A DNA stretch of 64,000 nt, taken from assembly GCA_026396615.1 (NCBI GenBank), contig JAPLWK010000010.1:48348-112347 (forward strand), in the 5' to 3' direction. The position numbers and the translations under genes are program-made. Positions 1 to 40,560 of the stretch are shown in pieces (within the stretch, counting starts at the first letter, position 1; each line of letters opens with the position of its first letter). The notes under the pieces are model-generated. The model was not told the DNA's origin, searched no databases, and was given only the letters and a program-made list of their open reading frames with translations. Origin of the DNA: a candidate division WWE3 bacterium. GTDB taxonomy: Bacteria > Patescibacteriota > WWE3 > JAPLWK01.

Positions 1-270
1 GAACCTTTTGGGATTGTGCTTTTGGAAGCGATGGCCTTGGGATGTCCTATTATCGCGTCTAATACCGGAGGTGTTCCCGATCTGGTCAAAAATGATAAGA
101 CGGGAGTGCTTTTTAAGACCGGAGATGTTACCGAACTGTCGTCAAAGCTAGTTGAGCTTATTTATGATGAATTGGAAATGAATCGGTATATTCAAAACGG
201 TTTAACTTTTACTCAAGATTTTGCTTGGAATAAAGTGGCAACTAAATATTTGGAAATCTATGGAAAATAA
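1..270 (+). CDS. Glycosyltransferase family 1 (GT4-like), C-terminal fragment; the 5' end lies outside the window
   Basis: Frame is open from position 1: EPFGIVLLEAMALGCPIIASNTGGVPDLVKNDKTGVLF is the classic GT1 C-terminal E-x7-E nucleotide-sugar-binding motif. TAA stop at 268-270. Confidence 0.75.
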   Translation, partial: EPFGIVLLEAMALGCPIIASNTGGVPDLVKNDKTGVLFKTGDVTELSSKLVELIYDELEMNRYIQNGLTFTQDFAWNKVATKYLEIYGK

Positions 271-1411
271 AAATCATACACCGGTCATCTCCCATCTAAT
301 CTCCGAATTCATGCAAAGCAAGCAGTCTTTTACGTATCGTCAATTTATTAATCACACTAAATACAAAGTCGTGGCTTTAAGTCGGTTTTATTTCAAGGGA
401 TCACGCGAGATTTTTCCGGTCGATGAATTACATTTTTTAACCAGTATTGGTCATATTTATGATTTCTGCGGCCGTTATTTTCCGAAACTACTAGATTTGG
501 CTTTTGATCATTTTTTAAAGTACTGGGTGGTAATTCGCCACATCGAACTTCTCCATATTCATTTTGGCACTTTGGGGGCCAAACTGGCGCATCTGCGCGA
601 TCAACTCAAGATTCCCTTCGTCGTCAGTTTTTACGGTTCCGATACCACATCTTACCCACTAAAACCAGAATGGCAGCCGCTGTACAAAGAGATGTTTGCC
701 AATGTTGACTGTTTTTTGATGCTTTCGGAAATTCCCCGGCAGCAATTAATAGCCTTTGGGGCGCCGGCTGATAAATGCTTGATTCTTCCGCCATCGGTTG
801 ACCTCTCGCACTTCACTTACAAAGAACGAGTGCCTTCAGATGAGATCAAGTTTTTAATTACGGCTCGTTTCGTGGAAAAGAAAGGTCATTTTATTTTACT
901 GGAAGCTTTTAAGAACGTCGTTACCAGCGGACGCCTAGTCAAACTGATGATCATAGGGCACGGTGATCTTTATGGAAAAATTAAAGATAAAATAGCGGCC
1001 GAAAATTTAGGGGACTTTGTGGAGTTAATTGACGTCACGGGAATTACCGATTTCCACAGTTTTATTTTGCCAAAATATCACGAAGCCGATGTCTTCGTTC
1101 TACCGTCAATCGTTGCCGCCGACAACGACCAAGAGGGGACACCGCTTACAATTCTGGAAGCTTCAGCGACCGGTCTTCCCATTATTAGCACCAACGTTGC
1201 CGGTGTTCCTGAAGTCGTTCGGGATGGCATCACCGGTTTCGTGATTCCTCAAAAAGACGTCACCGCATTAACCGAAAAAATGAACGAGCTTTACGATCAA
1301 CCTGAGGTCAGACTAGCCATGGGTAAAGCGGGCCATCAGTTTATGGTCGATAATTTCTCGACGACCAGTTTGCCAGAGAGACTCGATAAAATTTACTCTC
1401 GTCTTTTATGA
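260..1411 (+). CDS. Glycosyltransferase family 1 (GT4-like)
   Basis: ATG at 260 overlaps the upstream stop. The C-terminal half has the GT1 motif (EGTPLTILEASATGLPIISTNVAGVPEVVRDGITGF). TGA stop overlaps the next start (ATGA). Confidence 0.8.
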   Translation: MENKNHTPVISHLISEFMQSKQSFTYRQFINHTKYKVVALSRFYFKGSREIFPVDELHFLTSIGHIYDFCGRYFPKLLDLAFDHFLKYWVVIRHIELLHIHFGTLGAKLAHLRDQLKIPFVVSFYGSDTTSYPLKPEWQPLYKEMFANVDCFLMLSEIPRQQLIAFGAPADKCLILPPSVDLSHFTYKERVPSDEIKFLITARFVEKKGHFILLEAFKNVVTSGRLVKLMIIGHGDLYGKIKDKIAAENLGDFVELIDVTGITDFHSFILPKYHEADVFVLPSIVAADNDQEGTPLTILEASATGLPIISTNVAGVPEVVRDGITGFVIPQKDVTALTEKMNELYDQPEVRLAMGKAGHQFMVDNFSTTSLPERLDKIYSRLL

Positions 1412-3015
1412 ACTTTTTTAAGAAAATTTCCGGAGAATCGTGGGCCGTGGCAGCCATTTTGGTAGCCTCTGCGGTGGTTCGGACCGTGTCTGCCTTTGTC
1501 GTATCGGGGGAGAGTGGGGGAGACTTTTACAACTACCTCTTAATGGGGAAGAGCCTCCTGGCGGGCGGCAGCATCTTCATCGAAAAGCGTTTACCGATTT
1601 ATGCTTTACTTCTCATTCCAGGGCATCTAGTAGGGCACCCACTGGGCTACGCGCGAGTTTTAGGGATCGTTCTGGCTATTTTAACCTTGTACTTTTTCTA
1701 CCGCTTGCTGAAGGATTTACGACTTCCCAGCATAGTTGTAGTAACGTCGTTAATCCTACTGAGCTTTCAACCCACCTTTTTCCTTTTTTCCATTCGGCCG
1801 CTTAGTCACACCCTATTTGATTTGGAAGTAATTATGAGCCTCTACCTTTTCGTCCATCTAACTACAGGCTTTGTTACTACCAAAAAAATCAATTATTTAT
1901 TGCTTGGTCTCTTTGGCCTAGTTTTGGGTATTATGTCAATGACTCGTCACGAAGGTTTCCTGGTCACCGCTGTTTTTCTAGTTTGTCTTTTTATTTTTTT
2001 CTTTTATCAGTATCGCCTTCGTGGTCTCCGAACCATTGCGTCGACCCTTTTCAAAGTTTTGACACTACCCGCATCAATTTTTATTTTGACGGTCTTACCG
2101 TGGTTTATTTCTAATTACCAGCGCTTCGGAAATTTTTTATACACTCAGTATCAGACCGATAACGGCCTTAATGTTGCGTATAATTTGACGTCGGTATTAG
2201 AGAACCTCAACAAAATGCGTCAGATTTTTATAGGGATCTGGAGTAGCTCGAGCATTTTACATTTAACCACAGAAATAATTCCAATTATTTTCATCTTAGT
2301 TTGGTTGACCTTCGGAATGCGACTCGTTAAGAAATCGATCGTCCTTGCAAGTGGGTTAATTATTTTAGGGGTACTCGCCTTTGTTTTTCGATGGCCGCTA
2401 AATTTAGGTTTTGTGGTCGCGGTACTAAGTATTGGATTGACGGCCATCGGTCTTTTTAGCTTGACGACAAAGATTAAATGGCAAATCGCACCGATTATAA
2501 TTATTTTCTTAACCCAGTTTGCTTTTTTGACTTTAGTGCAGCCTTGGTCACGTCACAGCCAACATCTGTTTTTTATCCCGATATTGCTTCTGTCTTTTGG
2601 ATTTTATAAACTAGTATCAACTTACCTAACTAAGGCGACAGCTGTTTGCTGTTTCATATTTGTTTTTCCAATAATACATTATTTTTTTCGGACAGATGTT
2701 CAGGTTGTAAAAGACTACAATACTTCTGGTCTTAAGAATCAACCGCTGTCGCAAACTTTAGTTGACTTTCAAAAATATCCTGATGGAGAGGTTCTAATTT
2801 CGACCGAGTTTAACGATAAGTTTAATAATGATTTGGCGATGGTTGAATATTATTTAGGATCTCGGATTACATACGACTGGAAAGTTTCGACCCGCTTCGT
2901 TTTAGACTATAATGATTCTACGGCATCGAGTCTTTTACCTAAAGAAACGTTAAGGCCGCTAGTACAAGAACAGACGGGCGATAATTGGGCTCAAATTTAT
3001 GAAGTCACTAAGTAA
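1408..3015 (+). CDS. Polytopic membrane protein, GT-C-like; paralog of 11135..12715
   Basis: More than 10 hydrophobic spans. The first loop is acidic (GESGGDFYNY) and a TRHEGFL motif is shared with the 11135 paralog (TRYEGFL). Confidence 0.5.
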   Translation: MNFFKKISGESWAVAAILVASAVVRTVSAFVVSGESGGDFYNYLLMGKSLLAGGSIFIEKRLPIYALLLIPGHLVGHPLGYARVLGIVLAILTLYFFYRLLKDLRLPSIVVVTSLILLSFQPTFFLFSIRPLSHTLFDLEVIMSLYLFVHLTTGFVTTKKINYLLLGLFGLVLGIMSMTRHEGFLVTAVFLVCLFIFFFYQYRLRGLRTIASTLFKVLTLPASIFILTVLPWFISNYQRFGNFLYTQYQTDNGLNVAYNLTSVLENLNKMRQIFIGIWSSSSILHLTTEIIPIIFILVWLTFGMRLVKKSIVLASGLIILGVLAFVFRWPLNLGFVVAVLSIGLTAIGLFSLTTKIKWQIAPIIIIFLTQFAFLTLVQPWSRHSQHLFFIPILLLSFGFYKLVSTYLTKATAVCCFIFVFPIIHYFFRTDVQVVKDYNTSGLKNQPLSQTLVDFQKYPDGEVLISTEFNDKFNNDLAMVEYYLGSRITYDWKVSTRFVLDYNDSTASSLLPKETLRPLVQEQTGDNWAQIYEVTK

Positions 3016-4513
3016 AAAACAGGAACTATTTTTAACGCTCATTGTCTTCGTGATCGCCGTCGCCATTGGCTTTTATCTTCGCTACGTGGCGGCAAGTACA
3101 CTGCCAATGATCAATGACGAAGGTTCTTACCTCTTCGATGCTTACCTTTTAGGTCAAGGTCATCTCCCCTTCCTGACATCCTTCTCGCGAGCGCCAGTCT
3201 TTATGATCCCACTGGCTTTATGGCTAAAGATTTTCGGCGTCAGTATTCTAAGCGGTCGTCTTTTTGCTGTGTTAGTAAGTTTGGGGTCTAGCGTAGTTTT
3301 ATATTTCTTAGGCAAAGAGTTAAAAGGTAAAGCTTTAGGAGTTGTGGCTTTTGTAATTTTTGCCACGATCTCGCCGGTTGCCATTCATGGAAGTTACGTG
3401 CTTACGGAAAATTTAGAAATATTTTTAGGACTACTGGGATCACTATTTTTAATTTACTCTCTTCGAACGCGGCCGTGGTTCCTATCGATTGCCTCTGGTG
3501 TTTGTTTTGGTTTAGCAATAGCGACTAGAGAAACGGCGGCGGTGTACCCATTATTTCTATGTATAGCAATCCTCGTTTTAAGATTTAGTAAACAAACGCT
3601 ACTGCGTTTAGCGCTTTGTGGGTTAGCCACCTTCGGAGTTTGGGCGGTAATGTGGGGTGGGATTGCCTCACAAGTGGGACTAGGCCATGTCGTAAAAAAT
3701 TTTCAAGCGATTTTAAAGATGCATAGTACTGGGGTTAAAGTTTCAACTGGCTTTGTAATTCGCGAGAAGCTGGGCGAAATCTGGTATCTAAAAATTGATT
3801 ATTTGATTTTTTACCTTTCTACTATTGCTTTTGCGATTTTGGCGGTCACTAAGAAGTGGTGGCGTAATAAGCAGATTTGGTTTCTACTAGCTATTGCTGG
3901 TGGTCCAATTCTATTCTACGGCGTTTATTACCAACGCATCCAGCCGGAATATTTCGCGAGCTTTATGCCTGGTTTTACTTTGATGATGGCGTATGTGGTT
4001 GTGGCTATTTATGAATGGCTAAAGACCCGGTCAGCATCTGTAGTAACATCGGTTGGCATCGCCGGCGTCATTATTTTCGGGATTACGAATCTACTTACTT
4101 TTACCTATCAACTTAAAAATAACCGCACTGGAACGTTTTATTTGCAGCCGATGGCAAATGTTGTCGCTTGGTTTCAAGTTAATACCCAGCCGACGGATGA
4201 GATTTTTACCGCGGCCGTCGGGATTCCTATGTTTAGCGGTCGCCACTTGGCACTAAATATTTCCCGGCCGGTAATCTATGGTTACCCGCACATTAAATCG
4301 GATATTAAATATGCCTTGTTCCCCACTCCACAGGCGATTATGGATTATTTAACGGTGAATCAAACTAAGTATTACATTGTGGAAAAAGCAACCAGAGATA
4401 GTTTTTACAACGGGCATTCAGAATTAAAGCAGTTTCTAGAAAGTAACTTTAAGCACTTAAAGACTTTTCCTAATCCTACTAATCCGATTGAAGTTTGGAT
4501 TCGGAACCCCTAA
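2999..4513 (+). CDS. ArnT/PMT-like (GT39/GT83-type) membrane glycosyltransferase-like protein
   Basis: Polytopic. DE motif in the first extracytoplasmic loop (PMINDEGSYLFDAY), typical of polyprenyl-phosphate-sugar-dependent GT-C enzymes. Confidence 0.55.
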   Translation: MKSLSKKQELFLTLIVFVIAVAIGFYLRYVAASTLPMINDEGSYLFDAYLLGQGHLPFLTSFSRAPVFMIPLALWLKIFGVSILSGRLFAVLVSLGSSVVLYFLGKELKGKALGVVAFVIFATISPVAIHGSYVLTENLEIFLGLLGSLFLIYSLRTRPWFLSIASGVCFGLAIATRETAAVYPLFLCIAILVLRFSKQTLLRLALCGLATFGVWAVMWGGIASQVGLGHVVKNFQAILKMHSTGVKVSTGFVIREKLGEIWYLKIDYLIFYLSTIAFAILAVTKKWWRNKQIWFLLAIAGGPILFYGVYYQRIQPEYFASFMPGFTLMMAYVVVAIYEWLKTRSASVVTSVGIAGVIIFGITNLLTFTYQLKNNRTGTFYLQPMANVVAWFQVNTQPTDEIFTAAVGIPMFSGRHLALNISRPVIYGYPHIKSDIKYALFPTPQAIMDYLTVNQTKYYIVEKATRDSFYNGHSELKQFLESNFKHLKTFPNPTNPIEVWIRNP

Positions 4514-4899
4514 GGGGCCCCTTTGGGGCGGTGCCTCTGTTTAAAAATAAAATAAGTTGCTCCAAATAAAGATCCCCAACCAATCAGCCACATAATCGCT
4601 GGTACCCCTTTAATTAGGAAAGTGTTTATTAGTCGTTGTATAAACAGGTGAGTATCGGGGTTAATTACAACTGTCTCGACTGTTTGTTTTAGCAGCGGTT
4701 CCATGATGTGCTTGTTGTATTCAAATTTTATAGCTAAAGTCGCAAAGCCAATCAGATAGACCGCGGCGATGCGCTTAAGCTTGAAAACCAAAACCCCTAG
4801 AGAAATAATTGCCCCAGCCACATAAACAAAAACCAGGCCATTGTGCGCAAAAAGCTGGAAGAATCCAATAATGACATTGTGTTTAAGGTCTTGGTACAT
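4510..4899 (-). CDS. Small (129 aa) membrane protein with 3-4 TM helices; possible GtrA/GtcA-like partner of the adjacent YfhO-like gene
   Basis: Hydrophobic helices, basic C-terminus. Sits immediately downstream of the YfhO-like gene on the same strand. No diagnostic motif recognised. Confidence 0.35.
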   Translation of the reverse strand: MYQDLKHNVIIGFFQLFAHNGLVFVYVAGAIISLGVLVFKLKRIAAVYLIGFATLAIKFEYNKHIMEPLLKQTVETVVINPDTHLFIQRLINTFLIKGVPAIMWLIGWGSLFGATYFIFKQRHRPKGAP

Positions 4900-7258
4900 G
4901 CCCTGATTTTATCATTAATGTGACCGTGGTGAACAAAAGCGCTAAAAATGAGATCACTAAACCATCGTAAATAAATGGATTCCAATATCTTATTACCAAA
5001 GTACCGGGTTGGTTTATCGTAACTGACATGAAAGCACCGTTTTGGGCAATTTTTATAGGCATATTATTAAGTGTGGCTTGGAAGTAAGGGCTGTAAGTCT
5101 TACTTATTAGAATTTGGCCTTTCCCAGTGGGAACTTTTAGGGTAGTAACAAGTGGTGAGCTTTTTGTAACTTGCGCTGTTTGGTAATTAGTTAAAGGCTC
5201 CTCATTTGGTACAAACGCGAATTCTGAAACAAACTTGGGATTTTTATAAATTTTAACCAAATGATCCCAAGGTATTAGGTTTGATTGATTAAAATAGACC
5301 GTGAGCTCCCGATGCTGATTTTCCACTAAGGTTTGAAAATTCCCAACATTGCCTTTGGCAAGTTCCTGGCACAAATTATTATCTTCATCTCGGCACTCAT
5401 TCGTAAAAGCAATCAGCGGGGCACCAATTAATGACCAACTCGGTTCGGAATTAAACTTATTTAAGCAATTTTCTAAAAGTGGGTTACAATTCAGGCTATT
5501 GTCTAAGGCATTTTGGGTGTCTGTCGTCCAACTAGCCCCAAAATAATAGGGGTCATCACCAAATATGGGGGTGTTATTTAAAAAAGTCGCGTACGGCGGG
5601 GCTACGGCGATCCAATTGCGATTATAATGTGGAAAATAGATCCGACCGCCTGTTTGATCTAGTAAACCTTTAATTTTTCCTAAGTACGAAAAATCGGCTA
5701 GTTCTTGTTTGTAGTTAAATAGTAAAAATCCAAAACTGTAACTTTTTGTTCCAAAGGTGGCCGGTCCCCACAGTATTTCCACGAAAACCAGCAGCGAAAT
5801 TGTTAAAGCGCAAAAATAAATTAATAACTTACCGTTTAGAAATCTTTTTAGAGTTCTAAAAACGGCCACAAATCCAACGATCCCAATAATTACTGGAATA
5901 ACGCGGAAAGCTAGGTTGATAACTCGGTTGACGTCAATAAGTCGACCAATAATATTTTCTTGGAAAAAGAAGGCTATGAGCCAAGCCACAACTGGGATAA
6001 GCGTTAATATCGGTTTTTTAGTTAGAATTAATTGGGCTCCTTTAACAATTAGAAAAACATTAGCAATTACCAGGAGCGCTAGGGTTGATGGGATAACGGT
6101 GAAGCGGTTAAAGATCGGTGCTGTAACAAGGAGGTTTGAAATGGGGCTGTCAACCGTCAGTATGATCCCAAGGATTAGTACTCCCAGAAAAGCTTTCTCG
6201 ATTGGCTCAATTGGCCTCTTTTTGACTATTTTGAAAGCTAGCCAGCTTAATCCAAAAAGTAGCAAGATAAAACCGATTAGCCCTGGAGTAAATATTCCCG
6301 TTAGCCTTTGGTCGGGAATGATTGGTAAGTAGTAAACGAGAAATTGTTTTAAAGTTAGATGATTTATCCGGCTTCCAATAACGGTGGAGGTGAGGCGACT
6401 TGAGCCGTTCACAGCCATTAGGCCTACCACTGGCAGTAATTTAACGGCGTAGATTAGCCCAGCCAAGATTCCGGAAAGCGCTAACCACCCTAAGTACTTG
6501 ATTTTGCTTTGAGTGGAGATTGTGTAAACAATAGCAAAAACTGCCAGGCCGATTAAGATGAAAAACGCAGTATTCGGGGAGCCTTCGAATAGAAAGGCTG
6601 TTGGAATAGCCAGAAGGCACAAGTATTTCTTCTCTTTTGTTTGAAAATAGGACCAGGTGAACAAGAAAATTAGTGGTAACCACTTCAACGAGAATAGGTA
6701 CTCAGTGCCGGCACCTTCTGATAGTCGATTAGTAACATAGCCATTGAACATGTAACAAATTCCGCCAATTGTTGCCAGCTCCTTTGATTTAAAAATTCTG
6801 TAAAATAAAAAGAAGGAAAAAAGTCCACAAAGAAATATTTCGATGACGAGTTTAATGTTAAATCCCAAATAGGCGTTATTTAGAAATCAAAGTAGAATTG
6901 TTGGAGAGAAGTATGGGGACAGAGGGTGGGCGAAAATATCAAAACCACCTTCAAAGAGGGTGTTCCAAATCGGAGGCTCTCGAAACTGCAAAATAGTCTT
7001 GCCGAAATATTGGAAGAACGGCAGATTTAAGTGATTGGCATCGGCTTGAGCAATGGCCATTCCGTTAAGAAGCAGCTTACGCATTAAAAAGCCTACTAAA
7101 CCTAAAAACCCTATAAAAATATACCAATTTTCGAAAATGTCTTTTTTGAATTCTTTTAAAATTAGCAGAAAATAAACTAATGGTGCTGTAATTATAAAAA
7201 TAATGAGGAGCCAGTTCCCAAAATCGTAAAAATTCATAGCCGTAATAATACTTGCCAA
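4883..7258 (-). pseudogene. YfhO-like GT-C membrane glycosyltransferase interrupted by an in-frame TGA at 6887-6889 (ORFs 6887..7258 and 4883..6868 share one frame)
   Basis: The upstream 123-aa piece carries the YfhO N-terminal motif (EPPIWNTLFEGGFDIFAHPLSPYFSP). The downstream 661-aa piece aligns colinearly with the intact paralog 32587..34620 across the stop (...SPTILL*FLNNAYLGFNIKLVIE). Confidence 0.6.
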
Positions 7259-7328
7259 GTTTAACCTTCTTGATATCAGCTCGCAACTATCGTTGTCACT
7301 CTGACCAAGAAGTTGTTAGAATGGTCAC

Positions 7329-8909
7329 GTGCCGAAGCTTAAAACGTCGAAATGGCCGTTATCCTTACTACTTGTTGGTTTGTTTGTGTTAACGGTAGCT
7401 ATCAGGATTCCAGTTTTACGATCGGTTGGGGAGACGTGGGACGAATACGCGGTGGTTTACTACGGCGAAACTTATTACTCAGCCTTTAAAAATCTTGATT
7501 TTAGCGTGAGCTCCTGGGAACAAAATTACGAACATCCGCCGGTGGCGAAGTATATTTATGGATTAAGTCGACAAGTTACAAAAAAGATTCCGTTTATCAA
7601 AGCTTTGGATAGTGAGTATCATAGCGATAAAGAATACACATTACCTAGGGTTGTGTCAGCGATCTTTGGTGGGCTTACGGTTGTTTTAGTCTTTTTGATA
7701 GGGTCAACTTTGTTTAATCGCAAGATTGGACTAGCGTCGTCGTTAATCCTAAGCGTTCTTCCTCATTTCATTGCGTACACTTCAATTGCATCACTGGAGT
7801 CTATCTTCATCTTTTTCACGACTTTCTTTATTTATTGCCTTATTAAAGCTTTGAAATCAAATAATTGGCGTTGGCATCTGGCCACCGTCATCGCCTTGAC
7901 GTTATCCTTCGCAACTCGTTTCAATGGCACTTTTTTTGTGGCCCTTTACGCTGTCATTATTGTTTTCTTCTATCGTCAGCAACTGCTAAAACTTAAGTTT
8001 AAAGAAATCCCATGGCCGGTTTTATTGTCTCCGATTATTTTCTTAGGTCTATTTTTTGCATTGTGGCCGTGGTTGTGGATCACACCATTTAACATTATTA
8101 AAACTTTTCAACATTCCTCTGGTGGGCATACCGGTGAGTATTTTTTGGGAAGTTTAGGCCAGCCTGGTTGGTATTACTACATTGTCTATTTCCTAGTAAC
8201 GACACCCGAAGTAATGTTAGTTTTATTTGGTATTTTTATATACACACTGATTAGGAAGTTGGCGAGTTGGAAGTTAGAGGTTGGAATTAGAAGTTGGAAA
8301 TATTTCCTACTACTCGCTTGGTTTCTGACGCCATTCCTGGCTTCGTTCGTGGCTTTTAAGCAAAACGGCATTCGTTACGCCGTTTATTTTATGCCAGCGC
8401 TAGCCTTGATGTCTGGAGTAGCTTTAATAAAACTGTTAGACGCCGTCAAAAAATCGATTTATAAAATTATGGTCGCTGTGATTGCGATGGTTGGCTTGTT
8501 ATATCCGGTTGTTTTGTTTTATCCTTACTATCTCGACTACTACAACTTGGCTTCCGGCGGCCCGAAAGCGGCTTATGAAAATCGATCCTTTGTTATCAGT
8601 TGGTGGGGAGAAGGAGGACTAGCCGCGGTAAGATATATTAATCAGAATGCGCCTCGTGGTGCCGTGGTTCGAACGCTTTTTACACCGGCTCACACTTTAA
8701 TTAAGTTTAGGGATGATTTAGCAATTCATAACGGTTACGATCCTTTAGGACATGACGATTATATATTGACTAATACTTATTACGATTGGTATGGAAATCC
8801 TAAGAATCTAGTAGACTTAAAGAACTATAAAGTAGTGTATGGGATGGCTACTCCCAATTGGTCGCTATTTTCGGCACCACTAGTTCGAGTTTATAAAAGA
8901 GTTATATGA
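7329..8909 (+). CDS. ArnT/PMT-like GT-C membrane glycosyltransferase-like protein
   Basis: GTG start. Polytopic. WDEY acidic motif in the first loop (SVGETWDEYAVVYYGETYY). Confidence 0.55.
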   Translation: MPKLKTSKWPLSLLLVGLFVLTVAIRIPVLRSVGETWDEYAVVYYGETYYSAFKNLDFSVSSWEQNYEHPPVAKYIYGLSRQVTKKIPFIKALDSEYHSDKEYTLPRVVSAIFGGLTVVLVFLIGSTLFNRKIGLASSLILSVLPHFIAYTSIASLESIFIFFTTFFIYCLIKALKSNNWRWHLATVIALTLSFATRFNGTFFVALYAVIIVFFYRQQLLKLKFKEIPWPVLLSPIIFLGLFFALWPWLWITPFNIIKTFQHSSGGHTGEYFLGSLGQPGWYYYIVYFLVTTPEVMLVLFGIFIYTLIRKLASWKLEVGIRSWKYFLLLAWFLTPFLASFVAFKQNGIRYAVYFMPALALMSGVALIKLLDAVKKSIYKIMVAVIAMVGLLYPVVLFYPYYLDYYNLASGGPKAAYENRSFVISWWGEGGLAAVRYINQNAPRGAVVRTLFTPAHTLIKFRDDLAIHNGYDPLGHDDYILTNTYYDWYGNPKNLVDLKNYKVVYGMATPNWSLFSAPLVRVYKRVI

Positions 8910-10033
8910 GAATCGCGATTTTTATTAAGAACACAATTTATCACGGAAAATACGGGGGACTAGAAACGCAAAATGAGAACTTGGTTCAGGGTTTGCGTGA
9001 GGCTGGTCATGACGTCATTGTCTTCGCACCGGCTTCAGAATTGTCAGTTTCTGGATACATATTCGTACCTAGGACAACACCTGGGAAGTACGACGAAGCG
9101 TGGTGGCAAAAGAGTTTAGCCGCTTTTGAATCACTTCATGCCGTCAAACCATTTGATATTGTTATTTCCCAAAGTGCAGCTGGGGCAGAAATTATTAAAA
9201 ATAAAGAGCGACTTCATGTTAAAACAATAGTCGTCGCGCATGGTACTATTTGGGGCGAGGTCAAAACCGTACTTAGAAAAACCAAATCTTTTAAAGATAT
9301 TTATTTTGCTTTTAAGGCAGTGGCGTTTGGATTGAAAACTTACTCTGGACTCGATAGGAAGTATTTATTAAGTGCTGACCATATCATCGCCGTTTCTCAA
9401 GCAGTTAAAAAAGCTTTGACTCAGGAGTTCCCGTTAAGAAACGATCACATAACCGTAATTTCTAATGGGATTGATATTTATAAATATATTATCGCTGATG
9501 AAACTAAAGTGCCAGTTAATTTTTTGTATTTAGGGCGTCTGGAGAAAGAAAAAGGGTTAGAATTACTACTCATGGCTTTTAAGAACGTCCTTGAAAAAGA
9601 GCCGACGGCAACTTTAACTATTGTTGGTAGCGGCCCTTTTAAACTGCAGGCTTCAGATTCAATCACTATCCTGGGTGCAGTTGACTACAAAGACGTGCCT
9701 CGGATTCTCGCTTCGGCTTCAGTTTTTGTACTACCGACTTTGCGTCACGAGGGGCTACCTATGACTTTAGTGGAAGCAGCGGCCTCTGGTCTTCCGCTGG
9801 TCGCTTCGGATATGGGAGGTATCAAAGAGATAGTCAGAGACGGAGTTAATGGCTTTCTGTTAAAATCTGGTGACGCTTCCGTGCTTTCGGAAACATTGGT
9901 TAAACTCGCAAAGGATCCAGAATTACGTCATACGCTGGGGCAGGCGTCACGCCAAATTGCCGAAGCCGAGTTTTCATTGGAAATAATGATTATAAACTAT
10001 ATAAAGGTTATAAAATTTATATGCGGATCCTAA
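8906..10033 (+). CDS. Glycosyltransferase family 1 (GT4-like)
   Basis: GT1 C-terminal motif (HEGLPMTLVEAAASGLPLVASDMGGIKEIVRDGVNGF). ATGA overlap with the upstream gene. Confidence 0.8.
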   Translation: MRIAIFIKNTIYHGKYGGLETQNENLVQGLREAGHDVIVFAPASELSVSGYIFVPRTTPGKYDEAWWQKSLAAFESLHAVKPFDIVISQSAAGAEIIKNKERLHVKTIVVAHGTIWGEVKTVLRKTKSFKDIYFAFKAVAFGLKTYSGLDRKYLLSADHIIAVSQAVKKALTQEFPLRNDHITVISNGIDIYKYIIADETKVPVNFLYLGRLEKEKGLELLLMAFKNVLEKEPTATLTIVGSGPFKLQASDSITILGAVDYKDVPRILASASVFVLPTLRHEGLPMTLVEAAASGLPLVASDMGGIKEIVRDGVNGFLLKSGDASVLSETLVKLAKDPELRHTLGQASRQIAEAEFSLEIMIINYIKVIKFICGS

Positions 10034-11154
10034 GAATAATTTATGATTGGCCGCCGCCGTGGGATGGACTCGCTCCGGCCCCTTTTGCTTTTACTAAAGC
10101 TCAGTCAGCTTTGGGAAATGAAATCCATGTGATTTGTGGTGGTGGTTCGTTACTGTTTAAAAAGCGGGAAGCTGCGTCGCTCCCAGGTGTTAAAGTTACC
10201 CGTCTCCCCAGGACTTTACCACTAGTCGGTCCGTTTTTTACAACGGCGGTGCTGGTCCCTTTTGCCTATTTTTATCAGAAGCTAACCTGGAAACCGGAGG
10301 TAATTCATGGTCACGGTCACGTAAATCTTTGGCTGAATGTCTATAAATATTTCTTTGGTTGGTTAGACAAGACTCCGTATGTACTTCATTTTCACAATAC
10401 CGCTGCCGGTCGGGAACTAAACACTCACAAAAGTGTCCCGTTTTTTACGAGATACGTGGAGTGGCCACTTCATAAACTTTCTGATTGGCTGGGAACAAGG
10501 GTGGCCGATAAATTAGTTTTTGTCTCCAGCGAAACAGCCGAGGAGGCCAAGAATCTATATGGCGCGGATCCGGCGAAGGTTATCGTGTTAGAAAATGGTG
10601 TCGATTGCGAGTTATTTAATCCAAGTGGACAAAAAACTGCTGTCTTTCCCTCAGGGAAGACTTTACTTTATCAAGGATCCTTAAAGTCTCGAAAGAGAGT
10701 TGACGTTTTAATAAAATCTTTGGCGCTTCTTCCAAGTAATATTAATTTGGCGCTTATTGGCCCGGATACTGAACCAAACCTCCATCAAATTGTTGTTGAT
10801 TTAAAACTTGAAAAGCGCGTTAAATTTTTAGGGTACTTGCAGAATTCCGAAACTCCTCAGTATTTTCGGTCTTCAACTTTGTTTGTAATTCCTTCCAGCT
10901 ATGAGGGTTTTCCGAAAGTAGTCCTCGAGAGCCTAGCCTGTGGCCTTCCGGTTCTCGCTTCCGGATTTAAAGTTGAGCCACCAGTTGGAGGCATGAGCAT
11001 TAAAGAATTTAGTGACGAAGTCGCCTTGGCCGCGAGTATTGGCGAAACACTAATGAACTTACCAGCGGTCGACGTTACAGCCATAAAAACCAGATTTGAT
11101 TGGTCAGTTCTAGCAGCTCGTCTGCAGGTAATATATGAAAGCATGGCTCACTAA
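10021..11154 (+). CDS. Glycosyltransferase family 1 (GT4-like)
   Basis: YEGFPKVVLESLACGLPVLAS motif and a two-Rossmann-domain layout. Confidence 0.7.
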   Translation: MRILRIIYDWPPPWDGLAPAPFAFTKAQSALGNEIHVICGGGSLLFKKREAASLPGVKVTRLPRTLPLVGPFFTTAVLVPFAYFYQKLTWKPEVIHGHGHVNLWLNVYKYFFGWLDKTPYVLHFHNTAAGRELNTHKSVPFFTRYVEWPLHKLSDWLGTRVADKLVFVSSETAEEAKNLYGADPAKVIVLENGVDCELFNPSGQKTAVFPSGKTLLYQGSLKSRKRVDVLIKSLALLPSNINLALIGPDTEPNLHQIVVDLKLEKRVKFLGYLQNSETPQYFRSSTLFVIPSSYEGFPKVVLESLACGLPVLASGFKVEPPVGGMSIKEFSDEVALAASIGETLMNLPAVDVTAIKTRFDWSVLAARLQVIYESMAH

Positions 11155-12715
11155 TCTTTGGAAAAACTACAAAGTTTTGATTGTCTTTCTAGTAGTTTTG
11201 ACGATCTTTCGAATCGCAATAATAAATATTAATGTCACTGAATGGGGTGACTCTTTTAGAATTCTACGCGCCGCAAAATATTTACTTAATCTCACTTATC
11301 CGCTTGATGAAAAACGCTTACCATTTTTTTCACTGCTACTGTCACCCGGTATTCTAGTTCTTGAGCCTGTTTTGTGGGGTCGAATCTTTGCAATTGGCAT
11401 GACCATAGTTAATCTATTTCTAACAGCTATTCTTTTTAGAACTTTATTTCCAAAAGTTAAAAATTCCGTCATTACACTCGCCGTAGTTCTCCTGGCTATT
11501 AATCCGATCTTTTTTTATTGGAGCCTTCGAATTATGGCGGAGACGACTTTCGTTTCATTAGTTCTGCTGGCATTTATAGTTTATTTCAAAGGTATTCGGT
11601 CGAATCGTAGTTGGTGGCCGTATTTCCTTGGCTTAGTTCTCGCTTTAGGAGCGCTGACCCGTTACGAAGGGTTTTTACTGTCTGGATCTTTTGGCTTGGT
11701 CTTTCTACTAAAGCGGCAATGGTCAAATATATTTAAAACATTTAGTGTGTGGTTTGTTTTAGTCGCCCCTTGGTTCGTCTTGACAAAATTGATATTGCAC
11801 GGCGGAACGAGTAACGCGTATGTTTCTGAACTAGGAACGTTTAATTTTGATCTAAATCGCTTGGGTTACTTTATCACTTATACCCTGTTCTTTTTAGGTT
11901 ATCCAATTCTCTTAAGTCTAATCGTTCCAAGTATCATTAGTTGGCGTAAGCGTCTGGTGTCTGTCATTCATGCTGCGGCGACGAGCCCTTTGTGGATTTT
12001 TGTAGCGATCGAGGTCGCTCTCTTTTTCGTGTGGACGCCATCATTACCGCGAATCATGCTATCAGTAATTCCTGTTGCCTACATCTTTGCTACTAAAGCT
12101 TTGAGTGATATTGATTTTAGGACTAATCGAAAAATATTGATTTTGTCATCCTCACTTCTTTTAATAATGTTTGTAGTCTTGCAATTAAAATTCCGAATGT
12201 ATTTTTTAGTTTTGTCGAGGTTGGGTGAGGTCTTGATCATTGGGCTGTCGATTTTAGGAATAATTGCAATGTGGCGAAACTCTAAAAAACTATTTTTGAC
12301 AGGACTAATTTTATCATGTCTGATCGGGTCTTTTGTGGTCGTTGCAAACCAGAGACTTGTTTACTCTACAATATATGACGTGTCTTTAAAGGCTGCAGGG
12401 CTTCCGGGAAATATCGCTTTCTCAGATGAGACTGGTGTTTCAGCTTGGTATTTAGGCAACAAGGGTGTTTATTACAATCCGTCGACGCCAATGGACGTTA
12501 CCAAACAGACTGAGTGGCTTCACCAAAACAATATTGCCTATGTTATAAACACCAACGAGTTTAATCGGGGTGACGCACTAAACTTGTCAAAACTAGCATG
12601 TAGTCAGCGAGTTAATGTCACTATCGCCGATACTTTGGACATAATTACCCAGCGGCTTGGCTTGCTAAAAAATAAACAGTATCCTGTTTTGTATAGTGAC
12701 ATCTGCAAAGTGTAA
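11135..12715 (+). CDS. Polytopic membrane protein, GT-C-like; paralog of 1408..3015
   Basis: First-loop motif VTEWGDSF and shared TRYEGFL motif. More than 10 TM spans. Directly followed by a DPM1-like GT2. Confidence 0.5.
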   Translation: MKAWLTNLWKNYKVLIVFLVVLTIFRIAIININVTEWGDSFRILRAAKYLLNLTYPLDEKRLPFFSLLLSPGILVLEPVLWGRIFAIGMTIVNLFLTAILFRTLFPKVKNSVITLAVVLLAINPIFFYWSLRIMAETTFVSLVLLAFIVYFKGIRSNRSWWPYFLGLVLALGALTRYEGFLLSGSFGLVFLLKRQWSNIFKTFSVWFVLVAPWFVLTKLILHGGTSNAYVSELGTFNFDLNRLGYFITYTLFFLGYPILLSLIVPSIISWRKRLVSVIHAAATSPLWIFVAIEVALFFVWTPSLPRIMLSVIPVAYIFATKALSDIDFRTNRKILILSSSLLLIMFVVLQLKFRMYFLVLSRLGEVLIIGLSILGIIAMWRNSKKLFLTGLILSCLIGSFVVVANQRLVYSTIYDVSLKAAGLPGNIAFSDETGVSAWYLGNKGVYYNPSTPMDVTKQTEWLHQNNIAYVINTNEFNRGDALNLSKLACSQRVNVTIADTLDIITQRLGLLKNKQYPVLYSDICKV

Positions 12716-12717
12716 TT

Positions 12718-13422
12718 ATGAGTAAATTATCGATTTGTATTCCTGTTTATAACGAGCAGGCGACTATTAGAGAACTTTTAGACAAAGTCACCGCGGTGCC
12801 ACTTGATAAAGAAATTATTGTGGTCAACGATGGTAGCACCGACAGGACCCCACAGATTCTGGCTGAGTATGCAGATAATCATCATATTTCGGTATTTAAT
12901 AAATCAAATGGCGGGAAGGGAACGGCTTTAATCGAGGCTTTTAAACATGTAAGTGGGGACTATGTTGTAGTCCAAGACGCTGATCTCGAATATGATCCCT
13001 TTGATTTCGTAAAAATGCTTGCAACTGCGGAGTCTAAAAATGTCACAGTAGTTTACGGCAGTCGTTTCCTTGGAAAGCCTTTGACAATGTCAGTTCTAAA
13101 GAATTATTTAGCCAGCAAATTATTATCGTTTTTTGTGTGGCTTTTATACGGTCAGATGATCACTGATGAGTCGACGTGCTACAAACTTTTTAAAACAGAA
13201 GTTTTAAAACAGATTCCTTTGGAATGTAAGCGCTTCGAATTTTGTCCAGAAGTGACAGCGAAGGTTTTAAAAAGGGGCATCAAAATTATCGAAGTCCCAG
13301 TCTCTTTTAATCCACGGGATGCCAAAGACGGAAAAAAGATTAGCTACTTAAAAGATGGTTGGGAAGCGGTGGCGACGCTTTTTAAGTATTCTTCACAATT
13401 CAAATCCAGAGGTATCTCATAA
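12718..13422 (+). CDS. DPM1-like GT2 polyprenyl-phosphate glycosyltransferase (soluble form, no C-terminal TM)
   Basis: IPVYNE, VVNDGSTDRT, GKGTA and VVVQDADLEYDP motifs of the dolichyl/undecaprenyl-phosphate sugar synthase family (GtrB/ArnC/DPM1). Confidence 0.85.
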   Translation: MSKLSICIPVYNEQATIRELLDKVTAVPLDKEIIVVNDGSTDRTPQILAEYADNHHISVFNKSNGGKGTALIEAFKHVSGDYVVVQDADLEYDPFDFVKMLATAESKNVTVVYGSRFLGKPLTMSVLKNYLASKLLSFFVWLLYGQMITDESTCYKLFKTEVLKQIPLECKRFEFCPEVTAKVLKRGIKIIEVPVSFNPRDAKDGKKISYLKDGWEAVATLFKYSSQFKSRGIS

Positions 13423-15119
13423 ATTTTTATCAACGGACCGATTTTTGGTGATGAGACTTTAGGGTCAAATACTTTTACTAGTTTCCATTTAGATACTGAC
13501 GCAAAGTAATTAACCCAAGATTTATAGAAATCTGGATAATACTTTTCAGACTCTTGGCTGATTATCGCGGACGCTATAGAACTGTTAACGACTAAGTATC
13601 TCCGAGGGTACTCTAAAGTATCAGCTTGGCAAAACACTGTTTGCAGAATTGGAGCTAGAGATTTATTAAGCGGGGCATAAGTGCTTCCACAATGCGGATA
13701 CCCTATCTCTACGACATTGTTTAGTCCATATTTATAAAGAGGTGGTGAGGCGTAGCTGGTAGCATTAAAAATTAGATCATTCCCAGATAAGTTACCAACA
13801 ATCCAATTCGCTGCTTCCTCCCGCGTGTCGATCTGCTGACTGGCGTTTAGGAAAATGTATGTATTAATCCCGCTGGGAGCGATAAGTATAATTAATAAAC
13901 TACTGCAGCAAAAGATCCTTAGCACCCGTGATTTTTTAGCAGCTAATTTATAAATTTCTACTACTAGAGCAGCGATAACCGGGATCATTAGTGGCATAAA
14001 TGGCAGCAGGCGACGTAGTGCCATCGAATTAGTACCGCTGTAAAAAATTACTCCTAACACGAACGATAAACATAGTAATCTAATCTTTCGGTTTTTATAC
14101 AGCAGTCCCCAGATAGTTGCTGCAGCTAGCAGGATAGATCCCGGCCACCCCAAAGCCTCCTTAAATGAAGATGGGTTTAAAAGCGGCAAGGTTTCAATAC
14201 TAATGCCATTTCCAAAAAAGTATTGCCACGGTCCAAAGCCTCTAACATCGGAAACACAACCTGATCTCATCGTGTCGGAAATACCTTTAAGGGCCATAAT
14301 TGTTTTTTGAAAATAGATAATGGTGGCTGGTGATAAAATTACAAAAGTAAATCCTGTTAGTATTCCAATCAAAGCTATGTTTCGTATGGTAGTAGTGACA
14401 GTTGCTTCTTTACGAAAAATTAATGCCCCAAAAATAATTAGTAACGGTAACGCGAGAATGAGAGCTCCGGAATTCATGGCAAGCGCGATTCCAAAAGATA
14501 TTCCGACTAGAACAATATTTTTGATTGAGTTTTTTTCATAAAGTCTAAAAAAACAGTACATAAAAAATAAATTGAAAAGCGCGCTAACGTTGTAAGGGGA
14601 GATGGTATGGGCATAAAAAATTAAGTAGTAGCAGAAGACACTCAGTATCAAAGAAATCCAAGCTACGGTATTATCAAAATATTTTCGGCCGAATTTAAAT
14701 AAAACAATAGGTACTAATGCTGTGATTAGAGCGGTGAATACCCTTGCCAGATTAAAAAAATCCGGTCTTGTCCAGGTGTGGATATCGTTCAATAAACTTG
14801 GTAACAATTTATGGCCAATTTGCCATACTTCTTTAAAGATAGTAACTAAGACAAAAAGTAAATTCGTATATCCTTGGGGATGGCCGTAAAAATAATCGGT
14901 ATTAATAAAACTAAGAAAACCGCCAGCGCCAGTTAATTTTGATAAATTAAAAACCAGATTTAGTGATGGTCCAAAGAAATCAATCTCGTCCGGGTTTTCA
15001 AAATTGTCGAGTTTAGGAAGCCCATGAGAAATAAAAGCTATTCTCAGATAAATTCCTAAAGACACAAGACCAATAAAAATAACCGCCGATAATATTTTAA
15101 ATCTTTGTTCTTTAGACAT
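13344..15119 (-). CDS. ArnT/PMT-like GT-C membrane glycosyltransferase-like protein; paralog of 30948..32630
   Basis: Shared N-terminus: YLRIAFISHGLPKLDNFENPDEIDF here versus YLRHGLPDFEVDDEGKF in the paralog. Polytopic. Last gene of the minus-strand GT-C / DPM1 / GT-C operon. Confidence 0.55.
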   Translation of the reverse strand: MSKEQRFKILSAVIFIGLVSLGIYLRIAFISHGLPKLDNFENPDEIDFFGPSLNLVFNLSKLTGAGGFLSFINTDYFYGHPQGYTNLLFVLVTIFKEVWQIGHKLLPSLLNDIHTWTRPDFFNLARVFTALITALVPIVLFKFGRKYFDNTVAWISLILSVFCYYLIFYAHTISPYNVSALFNLFFMYCFFRLYEKNSIKNIVLVGISFGIALAMNSGALILALPLLIIFGALIFRKEATVTTTIRNIALIGILTGFTFVILSPATIIYFQKTIMALKGISDTMRSGCVSDVRGFGPWQYFFGNGISIETLPLLNPSSFKEALGWPGSILLAAATIWGLLYKNRKIRLLCLSFVLGVIFYSGTNSMALRRLLPFMPLMIPVIAALVVEIYKLAAKKSRVLRIFCCSSLLIILIAPSGINTYIFLNASQQIDTREEAANWIVGNLSGNDLIFNATSYASPPLYKYGLNNVVEIGYPHCGSTYAPLNKSLAPILQTVFCQADTLEYPRRYLVVNSSIASAIISQESEKYYPDFYKSWVNYFASVSKWKLVKVFDPKVSSPKIGPLIKIYEIPLDLNCEEYLKSVATASQPSFK

Positions 15120-15135
15120 ATTGATAGGGCTAAAT

Positions 15136-15822
15136 TTAACCTACAAATCTATATTTAATCAGTGTCCAGAGGGCTTCAACACCGTCCCACGCCTTAACTT
15201 TTTTGCCTTCTGAACTGTCTCTTGGGTGGTAACTAATAGGAACTTCAATTATTTTGTAGCCCCTCTTTAGAACTTTCGCGGTCACTTCCGGACAAAATTC
15301 GAAGCGATTACATTTTAGGTTTAGACTCTTTATAAGGTCAGATTTAAAAACTTTATACGCGGTGGCTTCATCCGTAATACGTGATCCGTAAAGAATATTA
15401 ACGGCGGTGGTTAATATTCGATTGGCAAGGATACTTCGAAATGGTAAATTCTCAACTTTATTCATGAAACGCGATCCGTACACCACATGTGTTTGGCCAG
15501 ATTCTATAGGGGCTAGGAGTTTGTAATATTCCTCTGGATCGAGTTCTAAGTCGGCGTCTTGAATAATAACTACATCTCCAGTTACTTGTGCAAGGCCGTA
15601 GCGGATGGCCGCGCCCTTTCCTTTAATTGGGGAGACGACAACTTTTAAAACGTTCCCTGTTAGGGTTGCTTGGTGCTTAAGGATTTCCAAAGTACTGTCT
15701 GTAGACCCGTTTTCAACGGCAATAATCTCTTTGGGTATTGGGACCATTCGCACTCGCTCGATAACTTCGCCAACGGTGCCTTCTTCGTTATACACAGGTA
15801 TTATCACCGATAATAATTTCAT
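15136..15822 (-). CDS. DPM1-like GT2 polyprenyl-phosphate glycosyltransferase (soluble form); variant with ENGSTD in place of DDGSxD
   Basis: [12 protein letters not shown] and [13 protein letters not shown] motifs. Close paralog of 12718 and 17468. Confidence 0.85.
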
Positions 15823-15824
15823 AG

Positions 15825-17363
15825 TTACGTATTCGTTGGGTAAGTATTTACACTAGTATCAATCAAATACAACTGATCGCATTTTATATTAAATAGCAGG
15901 CAATATTTTTCTTCACTCAGATGCAGGTGTGAATCGGTAAGCCATGAGCGAAAAGAGATAACGTACCGCGGGTTTTTTGGAAAATAGTCATAGCCAAGTC
16001 TTGTGTCTAAATCTTGTCCGATATGTTTTTCAGCCAAATTCCAGGCATCCCATTCATAACCACCGTCAATTTCGTTTATGTTTACTTTCTGTCGGAGCAA
16101 GTTTTGACCGAGTTGCCAGCGCGCTTCATTCCACTGTTTAAACTCATAAATCCAGATTAAATTCAATCCAACGAAAAACGCAATTACAAAGGCTGCGCAG
16201 ATTTTAGAAAAATTACTATTAAGAACGAAATATTTTCCGAAACTCAGGGTTAAAAGTGAGACCACTGGCAAATAGTACCTATCACAATGGACCATCATGA
16301 ATGGGAAAAAGGCGACCAGAATTAAGGCTACTATTTGCTCAAGATCAAGCCGCTTTTTAAAATTCGCCACAAATAAAGCGACTCCGATCACCGACAACGT
16401 TGTGGCAATAACTCCTAGCTGTAGTGGGTGTGGAAAAAGAAACATTTTGGTGCCGTCAATAGAATTAGGTGCGAAGCCATTAATTGTTAATAATGCTGGG
16501 GTATAAAACATTAACTTCCCAAATTTCAGCCAATAAACACCGGCAATAAAAACGGCGACAACTGCTCCAATTACGAATTTAAGAATAGATCTTTTGGTTG
16601 GCTTAAAAATGAGAATAGTAACGGGTGGTAGTAACAAACCTAAGTACATTAACGTTTGAGTCCAGCGATCGAGTGCCGTCAAAATGTTGAAAGAAAGATG
16701 ACTAGACTGCATTTGTTGGACAATTGTAGGTGGTTGCACGAAATGAAACCAAGCAAAATATGCGATGAGTCCTAGTCCTGCTGGGATTGTTATTGCAAGC
16801 ATTTTTGAGATTTTTAGAGTCTGCTCTTTTGTTCTTAGTAGGTAAAGATAGTAAATTAGGGCGGCGGCTGGGAGGGCTGCCCCGATTTGACGGACACAAA
16901 TTGAACAGGCGGCCACAATTGACCCCAGAATTAAGAAACGTAATTTATCACTTTTAAGACCATACTCGTAGAAAGCAATGCTAAGAATTAGAAGAACTGT
17001 GAAGAGTACGTCTGTTCCAAAAGAGTACGACAGAAAGAAAAATAAGGGGTTTAAAAATAGTATAAGTGGCAAGTAGGCAGAGTTTATTTTGTAATTAACA
17101 CGTAAGTGCCAATAAGCGACTACAACACCGATGATGGAAAATATCGCGACTAGAAAATGGATCTTAGGAATAGAGAACCCGACTATACTAGAGTAAATAA
17201 AACCAAGTATTGTTTGGAAGAAAGTACTGGCCCTGGCATATTCGGAAACTCTAAAATTACCACTTAAAAACTTCTGAACACTTTGAATGTAAACCCAGTC
17301 GTCGTCGACCGGAAACTTAAAAGTCGGCGGTACGACTAAATAGGCAAGTAGTACCACCCCCAA
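15825..17363 (-). CDS. Polytopic membrane protein, GT-C-like
   Basis: First loop carries VDDDWVY. More than 10 TM spans. Immediately upstream of a DPM1-like gene on the same strand. Confidence 0.5.
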
Positions 17364-17467
17364 AATAATTAGAAACTTCCTCAGTTTATGTTGTTTTACC
17401 CAATGACTTAAGCGAGTTATGGCTATTAGTTTACACTAAAGATGATGCGCTATGCTAGAATTAATCA

Positions 17468-18154
17468 ATGCTTTTATCGATCATAATCCCGGTTTATAAC
17501 GAGGTGGCGACTTTGGAAGAGTTGCTAAAGAGAGTTAAAGCTGTTGAAGGCATCGATAAAGAAATTATTTTGATTGATGACGGTAGTAAAGACGGCAGTC
17601 GGGAACTATTGGGAAAATTAAGTGAGGCCGATTTGTCATTGAAAGTTATTTTGCATGAGAAGAATCAAGGCAAGGGAGCGGCGCTGAAGACTGGATTTGT
17701 GGCAGCAACCGGGGATTACGTGATTGTTCAGGACGCTGACCTTGAGTACGATCCAGAAGATTATCATAAACTTCTAAAACCGATTAATGACGGTAAAGCC
17801 ACAGTGGTTTACGGAAGTCGGTTTACCGGGGAACACCGGAATATGAATTATAAGCATTGGCTGGGGAATAAATTTCTGACGTTTTTAACTAATGTTCTCT
17901 ACGACACCACGCTTTCGGATATGGAAACTTGCTATAAGGTCATTCCACGTGAATTACTGCAAAATATAAAACTTCGCGCTAATCGATTTGACTTTGAACC
18001 GGAGATAACTGCTAAAATACTCAAAACCGGGGTGCGGATATACGAGGTGCCGATATCTTACGCCGGTCGGGAAAGCAACGAAGGCAAGAAAATTAGCTGG
18101 AAAGATGGCCTCCCGGCTTTGTGGTCTTTAATTAAGTATCGATTTGTAGATTAA
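17468..18154 (+). CDS. DPM1-like GT2 polyprenyl-phosphate glycosyltransferase (soluble form)
   Basis: IPVYNE, LIDDGSKDGS, GKGAALK and VIVQDADLEYDPED motifs. First gene of the long plus-strand operon. Confidence 0.85.
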   Translation: MLLSIIIPVYNEVATLEELLKRVKAVEGIDKEIILIDDGSKDGSRELLGKLSEADLSLKVILHEKNQGKGAALKTGFVAATGDYVIVQDADLEYDPEDYHKLLKPINDGKATVVYGSRFTGEHRNMNYKHWLGNKFLTFLTNVLYDTTLSDMETCYKVIPRELLQNIKLRANRFDFEPEITAKILKTGVRIYEVPISYAGRESNEGKKISWKDGLPALWSLIKYRFVD

Positions 18155-18170
18155 TTATGCAAAAAGTTTT

Positions 18171-18766
18171 AGTACGGAAACTCTCCCGATGGTACCTCTA
18201 GAATAGTCGAAACTTTAAAGCAGACTAATTCCCGTTTAAATTTACTAGTAGAAACTAAAAAAGAAGGTTTGGGACGAGCTTACGGTAAGGGTTTTCGGTG
18301 GGGGCTCGATCGTGGCTACGATTTAATTATCGAAAGTGACGCCGACATGTCACACGACCCGAAGTACCTGTCGCAAATGTTAAAGTTGTCAAAATCGGCG
18401 GATCTCGTAATCGCCTCACGCTACGTCAAAGGCGGCGGAACTGAAGGCTGGGGACTGCTACGAAAATTAATTTCTTATGGTGCGAGTGTATATACGCGTG
18501 TCATCTCAGGATTGCTTGTTCACGATGTGACTGGAGGTTACAAATGCTTCCATCGCCAAGTTTTAGAAACAGTGCCTTTCGAAAAAGTTAGGGCTTTTGG
18601 TTATGGCTTTCAAATAGAGATGAATTATCGGGTTTGGAAAGCTGGCTTTAAAATTACAGAATTCCCGATTATTTTTCCGGATCGCCGTAAAGGGGTCTCC
18701 AAATTTAATAAGAAGATATTTGTGGAAGCTTTTTTACTAGTTTGGAAACTACGATTTGCACAATGA
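18171..18766 (+). pseudogene. 5'-truncated DPM1-like GT2 remnant; the first ~45 codons, including the PxYNE region, are missing
   Basis: The frame is open from the stop at 18170-72 and reads NSPDGTSRIVETLKQTNSRLNLLVETKKEGLGRAYGKGF...ESDADMSHDP, i.e. DPM1 from the DGS-DGT motif onward. The only available start is TTG at 18269. Only 114 nt separate it from the upstream intact paralog. Confidence 0.6.
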
Positions 18767-34620: not shown

Positions 34621-34690
34621 AAGATAATACTACCACTAAGTTGCTTTTCTAGTCCATATTTTTAAATAGATAACAGAGTTTAATTATTGC

Positions 34691-34696
34691 TATAAT
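34691..34696 (+). promoter_or_regulatory. Candidate extended -10 element (TGcTATAAT) 20 nt upstream of the DUF2079-like gene start
   Basis: TGCTATAAT lies in the divergent intergenic region. There is no convincing -35. Confidence 0.25.
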
Positions 34697-34715
34697 ATGC
34701 TGTTAACATTAATAA

Positions 34716-36920: not shown

Positions 36921-36973
36921 CCGTTAGAAGCAGACTAGTATTTCATGATAGACTATAGCTTAGTTGTACTCCT

Positions 36974-38488: not shown

Positions 38489-38491
38489 TAT

Positions 38492-40425: not shown

Positions 40426-40493
40426 ACACGCTATTGACCTTAGGTCTCATCGGATTAAAACTAATACACAGATTCAACTGCCTCAAATATAAA

Positions 40494-40510: not shown

Positions 40511-40560
40511 AAGTATTTTTTGTTGCGCTCTGACTTTTTAGTCGGTGCCTTATTTATTGT

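Follow-up and report, generated by a model that had tools for sequence, protein, structure and literature searches.

The stretch of DNA considered here, called the window below, comprises 64,000 nucleotides of the 200,826-bp contig JAPLWK010000010.1 from a metagenome-assembled genome (MAG) of a candidate division WWE3 bacterium (assembly GCA_026396615.1). WWE3 (Katanobacteria) is a member of the Candidate Phyla Radiation (CPR). The subject of our analysis is a gene on the minus strand of this window, coding for a putative membrane glycosyltransferase, whose reading frame is interrupted by one TGA codon. A single frame extends from ATG 7237 to the TAA at 4885-4883; it holds 783 sense codons and is broken at codon 117 of 784 by the TGA alone (Table 1). 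Around the stop the minus strand reads ...TCT CCA ACA ATT CTA CTT TGA TTT CTA AAT AAC GCC TAT TTG GGA..., coding for ...S P T I L L stop F L N N A Y L G... The N-terminal fragment contains two hydrophobic helices and a loop with a family-invariant aspartate, Asp66, in the motif QADANH. The same-frame continuation carries the rest of the predicted transmembrane helices and a beta-rich, extracytoplasmic C-terminal domain. In the NCBI annotation of the MAG the locus appears as two hypothetical proteins, MCX6784063.1 (116 amino acids) and MCX6784062.1 (661 amino acids), which match the fragments exactly.

The sequence-only reading of this locus, made from the letters and a list of open reading frames (ORFs), had placed the two ORFs on either side of the TGA in one frame. 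This is indeed the case, and there is no other stop in the 784 codons. The coordinates and frame given for its downstream ORF, 4883..6868, are also correct, but the frame truly reopens at 6886; position 6868 is only the first TTG, seven codons past the stop. The annotated starts of the downstream part differ as well, TTG 6868 being used for the NCBI product and ATG 6751 (622 amino acids) in the Logan gene call. On the upstream side the open frame reaches TTG 7258, an alternative start that would add seven more codons. ATG 7237 is likely the start of the interrupted gene, as it lines up with the N-termini of homologs and was chosen by both the NCBI and the Logan gene calls. At the 3' end of the gene, a hydrophobic ORF of 129 amino acids (4510..4899, minus strand) overlaps it by 17 nt; this ORF matches no family and is not homologous to the genes that flank the orthologs. 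A promoter and terminator scan of 4400-7500 stayed at chance level.

The strongest evidence on the nature of the two fragments comes from an intact ortholog of 781 amino acids (P0008). It was found with the joined 784-residue product in an exhaustive HMMER (phmmer) search of 1.8 billion representative proteins, and it aligns in one stretch over query residues 13-775 with 42% identity (E 9e-170). Identity is 47% upstream of the stop and 40% downstream, and the continuation past the stop is colinear with the ortholog to its C-terminus. The locus of this ortholog, on a Joint Genome Institute (JGI) contig of 284,806 bp (L011), has the same divergent PMT-family gene immediately upstream. The PMT-family neighbours of the two loci are 35% identical over their full length (E 2e-80). 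This divergent pair is common to the window and L011, and therefore synteny, together with sequence, supports the assignment of P0008 as the ortholog. On the other flank, the PMT_2 gene of 504 amino acids at 2999..4513 was compared with the downstream PMT_2 gene of L011, and orthology of the two was rejected.

Some 15 further homologs of 625-712 amino acids (P0004, P0009-P0014 and others) are uninterrupted and colinear across the position of the stop. Within the window itself the divergent YfhO-like family has a second, intact member. BLASTP aligns the joined product with this paralog in one piece, over residues 22-391 and across the stop (E 2e-16, 23% identity). The colinearity with the paralog claimed in the sequence-only reading is confirmed. 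Judged by these alignments, the two fragments are one gene, far beyond chance. The interrupted gene and P0008 also share an insertion of ~75 residues (residues ~410-490; 5770..6010, minus strand), which is predicted to form extra helices with low pLDDT and is found neither in any other homolog nor in the paralog.

Closer relatives were sought in several collections. JGI metagenome contigs were scanned for a sequence pattern that had NNN in place of the codon, with 0 hits, and alignment-based scans of the genomes of GTDB species and of JGI metagenomes gave no confirmed relative. A word-index protein search returned only the fragments themselves and one protein at 31% identity (P0002), while the exact look-up of the 661-residue NCBI product found nothing on record.

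Table 1. Features of the interrupted gene and of other genes of the window discussed in the text
Feature	Coordinates	Strand	Basis or remarks
N-terminal fragment	6890..7237	-	116 sense codons from ATG 7237
In-frame TGA, codon 117 of 784	6887..6889	-	Next base U; TCA on the plus strand
Same-frame continuation	4883..6886	-	667 sense codons and TAA (4885-4883)
PMT-family GT-C gene, divergently transcribed	7329..8909	+	Pfam PMT/PMT_2
Intact paralog, 677 amino acids, same divergent YfhO-like family	32587..34620	-	BLASTP and alignments
Probable GT2 (DPM1/CsbB-like) remnant	18155..18766	+	First ~40 residues missing; TAG just upstream
Class-I S-adenosylmethionine (SAM) methyltransferase, probably frameshifted, two overlapping ORFs in different frames	47495..47988	+	47495..47665 (56 amino acids) and 47620..47988 (122 amino acids)

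Regarding the family of the enzyme, no Pfam or NCBIfam model matches either fragment, the paralog, P0004 or P0008 (E<0.1 or E<1). The joined protein gives 830 phmmer hits at E<=1e-3, and 48 of the 57 distant hits that we sampled match PF09586 (YfhO; best E 2.7e-32). These distant hits have E values of 1e-7 to 1e-17 and span query residues ~45-290, that is, both sides of the stop. In the AlphaFold2 (AF2) model, built with 19 sequences (pLDDT 80.6, pTM 0.86), about 13 long helices are followed by a beta-rich domain at residues 600-750 and a final helix. When this model was compared with the PDB by Foldseek, the best 15 matches were all GT-C enzymes (AftA, AftD, AglB, DPY19, PglB, STT3, EmbA/B), with probability 1.00 down to rank 13 and modest TM-scores of 0.3-0.46. 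Solved structures were also searched with a profile, with no significant match. Asp66 (D66), which lies in a Q-x-D-[FA]-N motif in the homologs, is invariant in the 19 sequences; according to the model its loop should be extracytoplasmic. It fits the modified DxD motif of GT-C enzymes, as described in PMC8035078. Homologs, fold and motif together point to a divergent YfhO-family GT-C glycosyltransferase, a distant family assignment. The label 'YfhO-like', given from the sequence alone, is upheld through the homologs and the GT-C fold, although neither fragment nor the paralog matches the Pfam YfhO model directly.

YfhO (PF09586) is the GT-C part of the three-component CsbB/GtcA/YfhO system. 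In Bacillus subtilis, Staphylococcus aureus and Listeria this system decorates lipoteichoic or wall teichoic acid with N-acetylglucosamine (GlcNAc) taken from a lipid carrier (PMC5836110, PMC8035078). The window protein resembles YfhO in having a multi-helix membrane domain with a C-terminal extracytoplasmic beta-rich domain (both predicted) and an invariant Asp in an early loop as part of a modified DxD motif (PMC8035078). In a possible parallel to the three-component system, small GT2 genes of the CsbB/GtrB type are found nearby (12718..13422, 15136..15822 and 17468..18154). The several GT2 genes of the region code for 228-243 amino acids, but none adjoins the interrupted gene, and no GtrA-family flippase gene was detected next to it, an apparent difference from the known system. 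Compared with YfhO of Firmicutes, the window protein is too divergent to reach the Pfam and NCBIfam models and this copy is broken by a stop. The host is a CPR bacterium, a group from which no teichoic acid is known.

The next point is whether the TGA is present in the DNA of the organism. Logan contigs, which are assembled separately for each sequencing run, cover the site in two runs. The contig of 5603 bp from SRR20698641 corresponds to window 7953..2351 and that of 1405 bp from SRR20698644 to window 7948..6544; both agree with the window at 100% identity, the TGA included. Thus three assemblies (the two Logan assemblies and the MAG) from at least two runs have the same codon at the level of contig consensus. 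No intact allele is found among ~15 billion catalogued proteins, and the 90%-identity clusters hold only the fragments. Since two independently assembled runs give the identical TGA, the codon is genuine DNA and a random sequencing or assembly error is unlikely. One could still suppose that most cells carry a sense codon and that the TGA is artefactual or belongs to a minority allele. The source is a MAG, known here from contigs, and another gene of the window is probably frameshifted, which could be a sign of imperfect assembly. Against this stand the exact agreement of the three assemblies, the missing intact allele and the fact that both Logan contigs pass unbroken through a site where a frequent variant might have caused a break. 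Moreover, substitution errors seldom survive in Illumina consensus. We regard such an artefact as quite unlikely. Of the options considered in the sequence-only reading, sequencing error is reduced in this way to a minor possibility.

It is important to note that UGA is a normal stop codon in this organism. The 49 long ORFs of the window end with TAA (24), TGA (13) or TAG (12), so that TGA accounts for 27% of stops. Genes ending with TGA include rsmG (GidB, 52300..52926, minus strand), nrdD, the GT4 gene 221..1411 and the divergent PMT gene ending at 8909, the C-terminus of which coincides with that of its ortholog. In a six-frame scan of the 64 kb, the TGA at 6889-6887 is the sole TGA between two long same-frame open stretches. 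Two other same-frame ORF pairs, with stops at 38486 (TAA) and 56744 (TAG), as well as the L21/L27 ORF pair, were rejected as interruptions; they are complete separate genes. The tRNAs of the window are Val-CAC, Gly-CCC and Asp-GTC only, with no selC-like tRNA in these 64 kb, and an Rfam scan of the window found nothing but the same three tRNAs. When a segment of 101 nt about the stop was folded, the outcome was no more than a weak AU-rich hairpin (z = -1.4, equalled by 18 of 200 shuffles), and no structure resembling a selenocysteine insertion sequence (SECIS) or stimulating readthrough was seen in these 101 nt.

Recoding of UGA, either as selenocysteine or by an alternative code (Gly or Trp, as in SR1/Gracilibacteria or code 4), would be another way to explain the interrupted frame. 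It is brought to mind by the SR1 and Gracilibacteria lineages of the CPR, which read UGA as Gly (PMC3812714), and the present case shares with their code 25 an in-frame UGA inside a conserved gene of a CPR bacterium. The likeness ends there. In the window 13 of 49 ORFs end with TGA at expected C-termini, and in a complete WWE3 genome UGA ends 22% of ORFs under the standard code (PMC3812714). In contrast to code 25 or selenocysteine, a single gene of the 64 kb is affected, the aligned residues in homologs are Ser, Leu and Phe and not Cys or Gly, and there is no SECIS-like hairpin. We consider recoding of any kind practically negligible as an explanation. The sequence-only reading had come to the same view from the TGA codons that end rsmG, the glycosyltransferase gene at 1411 and the gene at 8909; all three do end with TGA, and genome-wide recoding is, as it stated, unlikely.

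Locus-specific readthrough is a different matter. UGA is the leakiest bacterial stop codon, and a near-cognate tRNA similar to tRNA-Trp, or a suppressor tRNA, could in principle produce useful full-length enzyme, perhaps keeping its expression low. The position of the stop is relevant here. Residue 117 is in a loop that the AF2 model predicts with confidence (residues 86-121), and a long transmembrane helix (122-149) begins five residues later. In homologs this column holds Ser (TCC in P0008), Leu (TTA in the paralog, CTT in P0004) or Phe, and never a conserved Cys, Trp or Gly. Since the site is variable, Trp, Cys or Arg might be accepted, and the rest of the frame is intact, as would be needed for a readthrough product. 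However, neither orthologs nor the paralog have a stop at this site. The hairpin around the stop is weak, no other window gene has an in-frame TGA, and the tRNAs of the window are only the three named above. The next base is U, and UGA-U is reportedly the most efficient UGA termination context in E. coli, as Poole et al. are said to have found in 1995. The option of locus-specific readthrough named in the sequence-only reading is therefore unsupported, given the sense codons in orthologs, the variable site, the UGA-U context and the missing stimulatory structure, and we hold it to be very unlikely.

The position of the stop also bears on the possibility that the gene works in two pieces. The fragment of 116 amino acids and a second one of ~661 amino acids, made by termination-reinitiation at TTG 6868, would then join as a two-chain GT-C enzyme. 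The cut would fall in the loop that joins the Asp-bearing segment to the following transmembrane helix of the AF2 model, and split membrane proteins can often reassemble if cut in loops. The TTG start is 21 nt past the stop. The missing Shine-Dalgarno sequence is not decisive, as most genes of this genome have no such motif, and the downstream part is without decay. For the absence of decay, recency is an equally good explanation. Reinitiation at TTG 6868 would also lose 7 residues beside the helix. No homolog is naturally split, all real homologs being single chains. Two candidates for a natural split were rejected: the protein P0018 with its upstream ORF (L013), where a 10-N scaffold gap with a duplicated flank separates the two (L013 2030..2050), and P0031 (L014), a chimera in which an Illumina adapter is fused to the gene (L014 1..70). 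A functional split of this kind appears unlikely to us. Taken by itself, the proposal that the gene is still used, either as a two-piece enzyme reinitiated at TTG 6868 or by low-level readthrough giving a small but sufficient amount, has in our opinion only a slim chance of being right.

With sequencing error unlikely and specific readthrough unsupported, the first of the three options offered in the sequence-only reading, a nonsense pseudogene, is the one left. We conclude, with a probability of about 0.72, that the interrupted gene is a recent nonsense pseudogene (loss-of-function allele) of a divergent YfhO-family GT-C glycosyltransferase. By a single-base substitution, TGA would have replaced the sense codon of a variable residue that closely precedes a transmembrane helix. 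The ancestral codon was most likely the Leu codon TTA, changed by a T-to-G transversion. TTA is favoured because it is the codon of the paralog at this column and the commonest Leu codon of the interrupted gene (33 uses); Ser TCA and Trp TGG are equally one step off. Since UGA is a stop, ribosomes would terminate after 116 residues. On the AF2 model, this product should comprise the first helices and the Asp loop and be without the remaining helices and the C-terminal beta-rich domain. The predicted truncation suggests loss of function: the enzyme would be lost, save for a trace of full-length protein from the basal misreading of UGA that occurs in any bacterium.

The mutation looks recent, judging by the comparison with homologs. 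There is no second lesion in the 784 codons, all 8 invariant and 6 near-invariant residues of the family are kept, and identity to the ortholog is similar on either side of the stop. In these respects the case is like ordinary single-lesion bacterial pseudogenes, which have one stop where relatives have a sense codon and an otherwise intact frame; paralogs that could provide redundancy and other damaged genes nearby in the window add to the likeness. It is unlike ordinary pseudogenes only in its host, a CPR lineage with a small genome, and nothing is different in kind.

Several observations weigh against this conclusion. A gene intact but for one codon is just as compatible with continued function. 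CPR genomes are streamlined, and pseudogenes are usually few in them. Both runs contain one and the same strain, their sequences agreeing over several kilobases, and represent independent libraries but not independent populations, and the TGA is seen at the level of contig consensus. Finally, the collections searched contain no sister genome between 42% and 100% identity, and the stop may or may not be older than this strain.

The surroundings of the pseudogene candidate give a possible reason why the cell could do without it. A glycosylation island takes up the first ~46 kb of the window (1..46000), plus 54000..59000. It has at least 12 GT-C genes (PMT, PMT_2, GT87, DUF2079 and two YfhO-like), 6 or more GT4 and 5 or more GT2 genes, two Polysacc_synt flippases and one Wzy_C gene. 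This composition fits the reported abundance of glycosyltransferases in WWE3. Because the interrupted gene sits among many GT-C genes, including the intact paralog, redundancy within the island may have made its loss tolerable. Two unusual fusions also occur in the island, GT4 with LPG_synthase_TM (23124..25145) and PMT with PGA_cap (28375..30951). As to gene organization, many neighbouring window genes overlap by 4 nt (ATGA), and most have no recognisable Shine-Dalgarno sequence within 25 nt upstream, while a few (47495, 62510) have a perfect AGGAGG.

Two other genes of the window appear to be damaged. The GT2 gene following the intact one at 17468..18154 is probably a 5'-truncated remnant, with its damaged gene at about 18176-18766: it aligns with this intact neighbour only from residue 40 of the latter, and it matches the Pfam GT2 model at positions 72-166 only. 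The methyltransferase gene is probably broken by a 1-nt frameshift near 47645-47660. Its first ORF is preceded by a strong Shine-Dalgarno sequence (taaggaggtg) and there is no homopolymer at the break site; after conceptual repair, Pfam Methyltransf_25 matches across the junction with E 3.2e-5 (25 bits, with a cutoff of 27). With these two damaged genes in the same window, decay, or a modest rate of assembly error, is not confined to the locus of the interrupted gene.

Our results have consequences mainly for annotation. MCX6784063.1 and MCX6784062.1 are, on the evidence of the alignments, the halves of one YfhO-family GT-C gene, and annotation as a pseudogene is warranted. The case also shows that code reassignment does not have to lie behind an in-frame UGA of a CPR genome. 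As a by-product, the analysis points to a CPR subfamily of YfhO-like enzymes, with ~17 sequences at E<1e-30, which is missed by the current Pfam and NCBIfam models. If the gene were after all in use, it would mean that a CPR bacterium tunes or diversifies its surface glycosylation through a stop codon. As a probable pseudogene it matters little beyond annotation, and would be a clean example of recent gene loss in a paralog-rich WWE3 glycosylation island.

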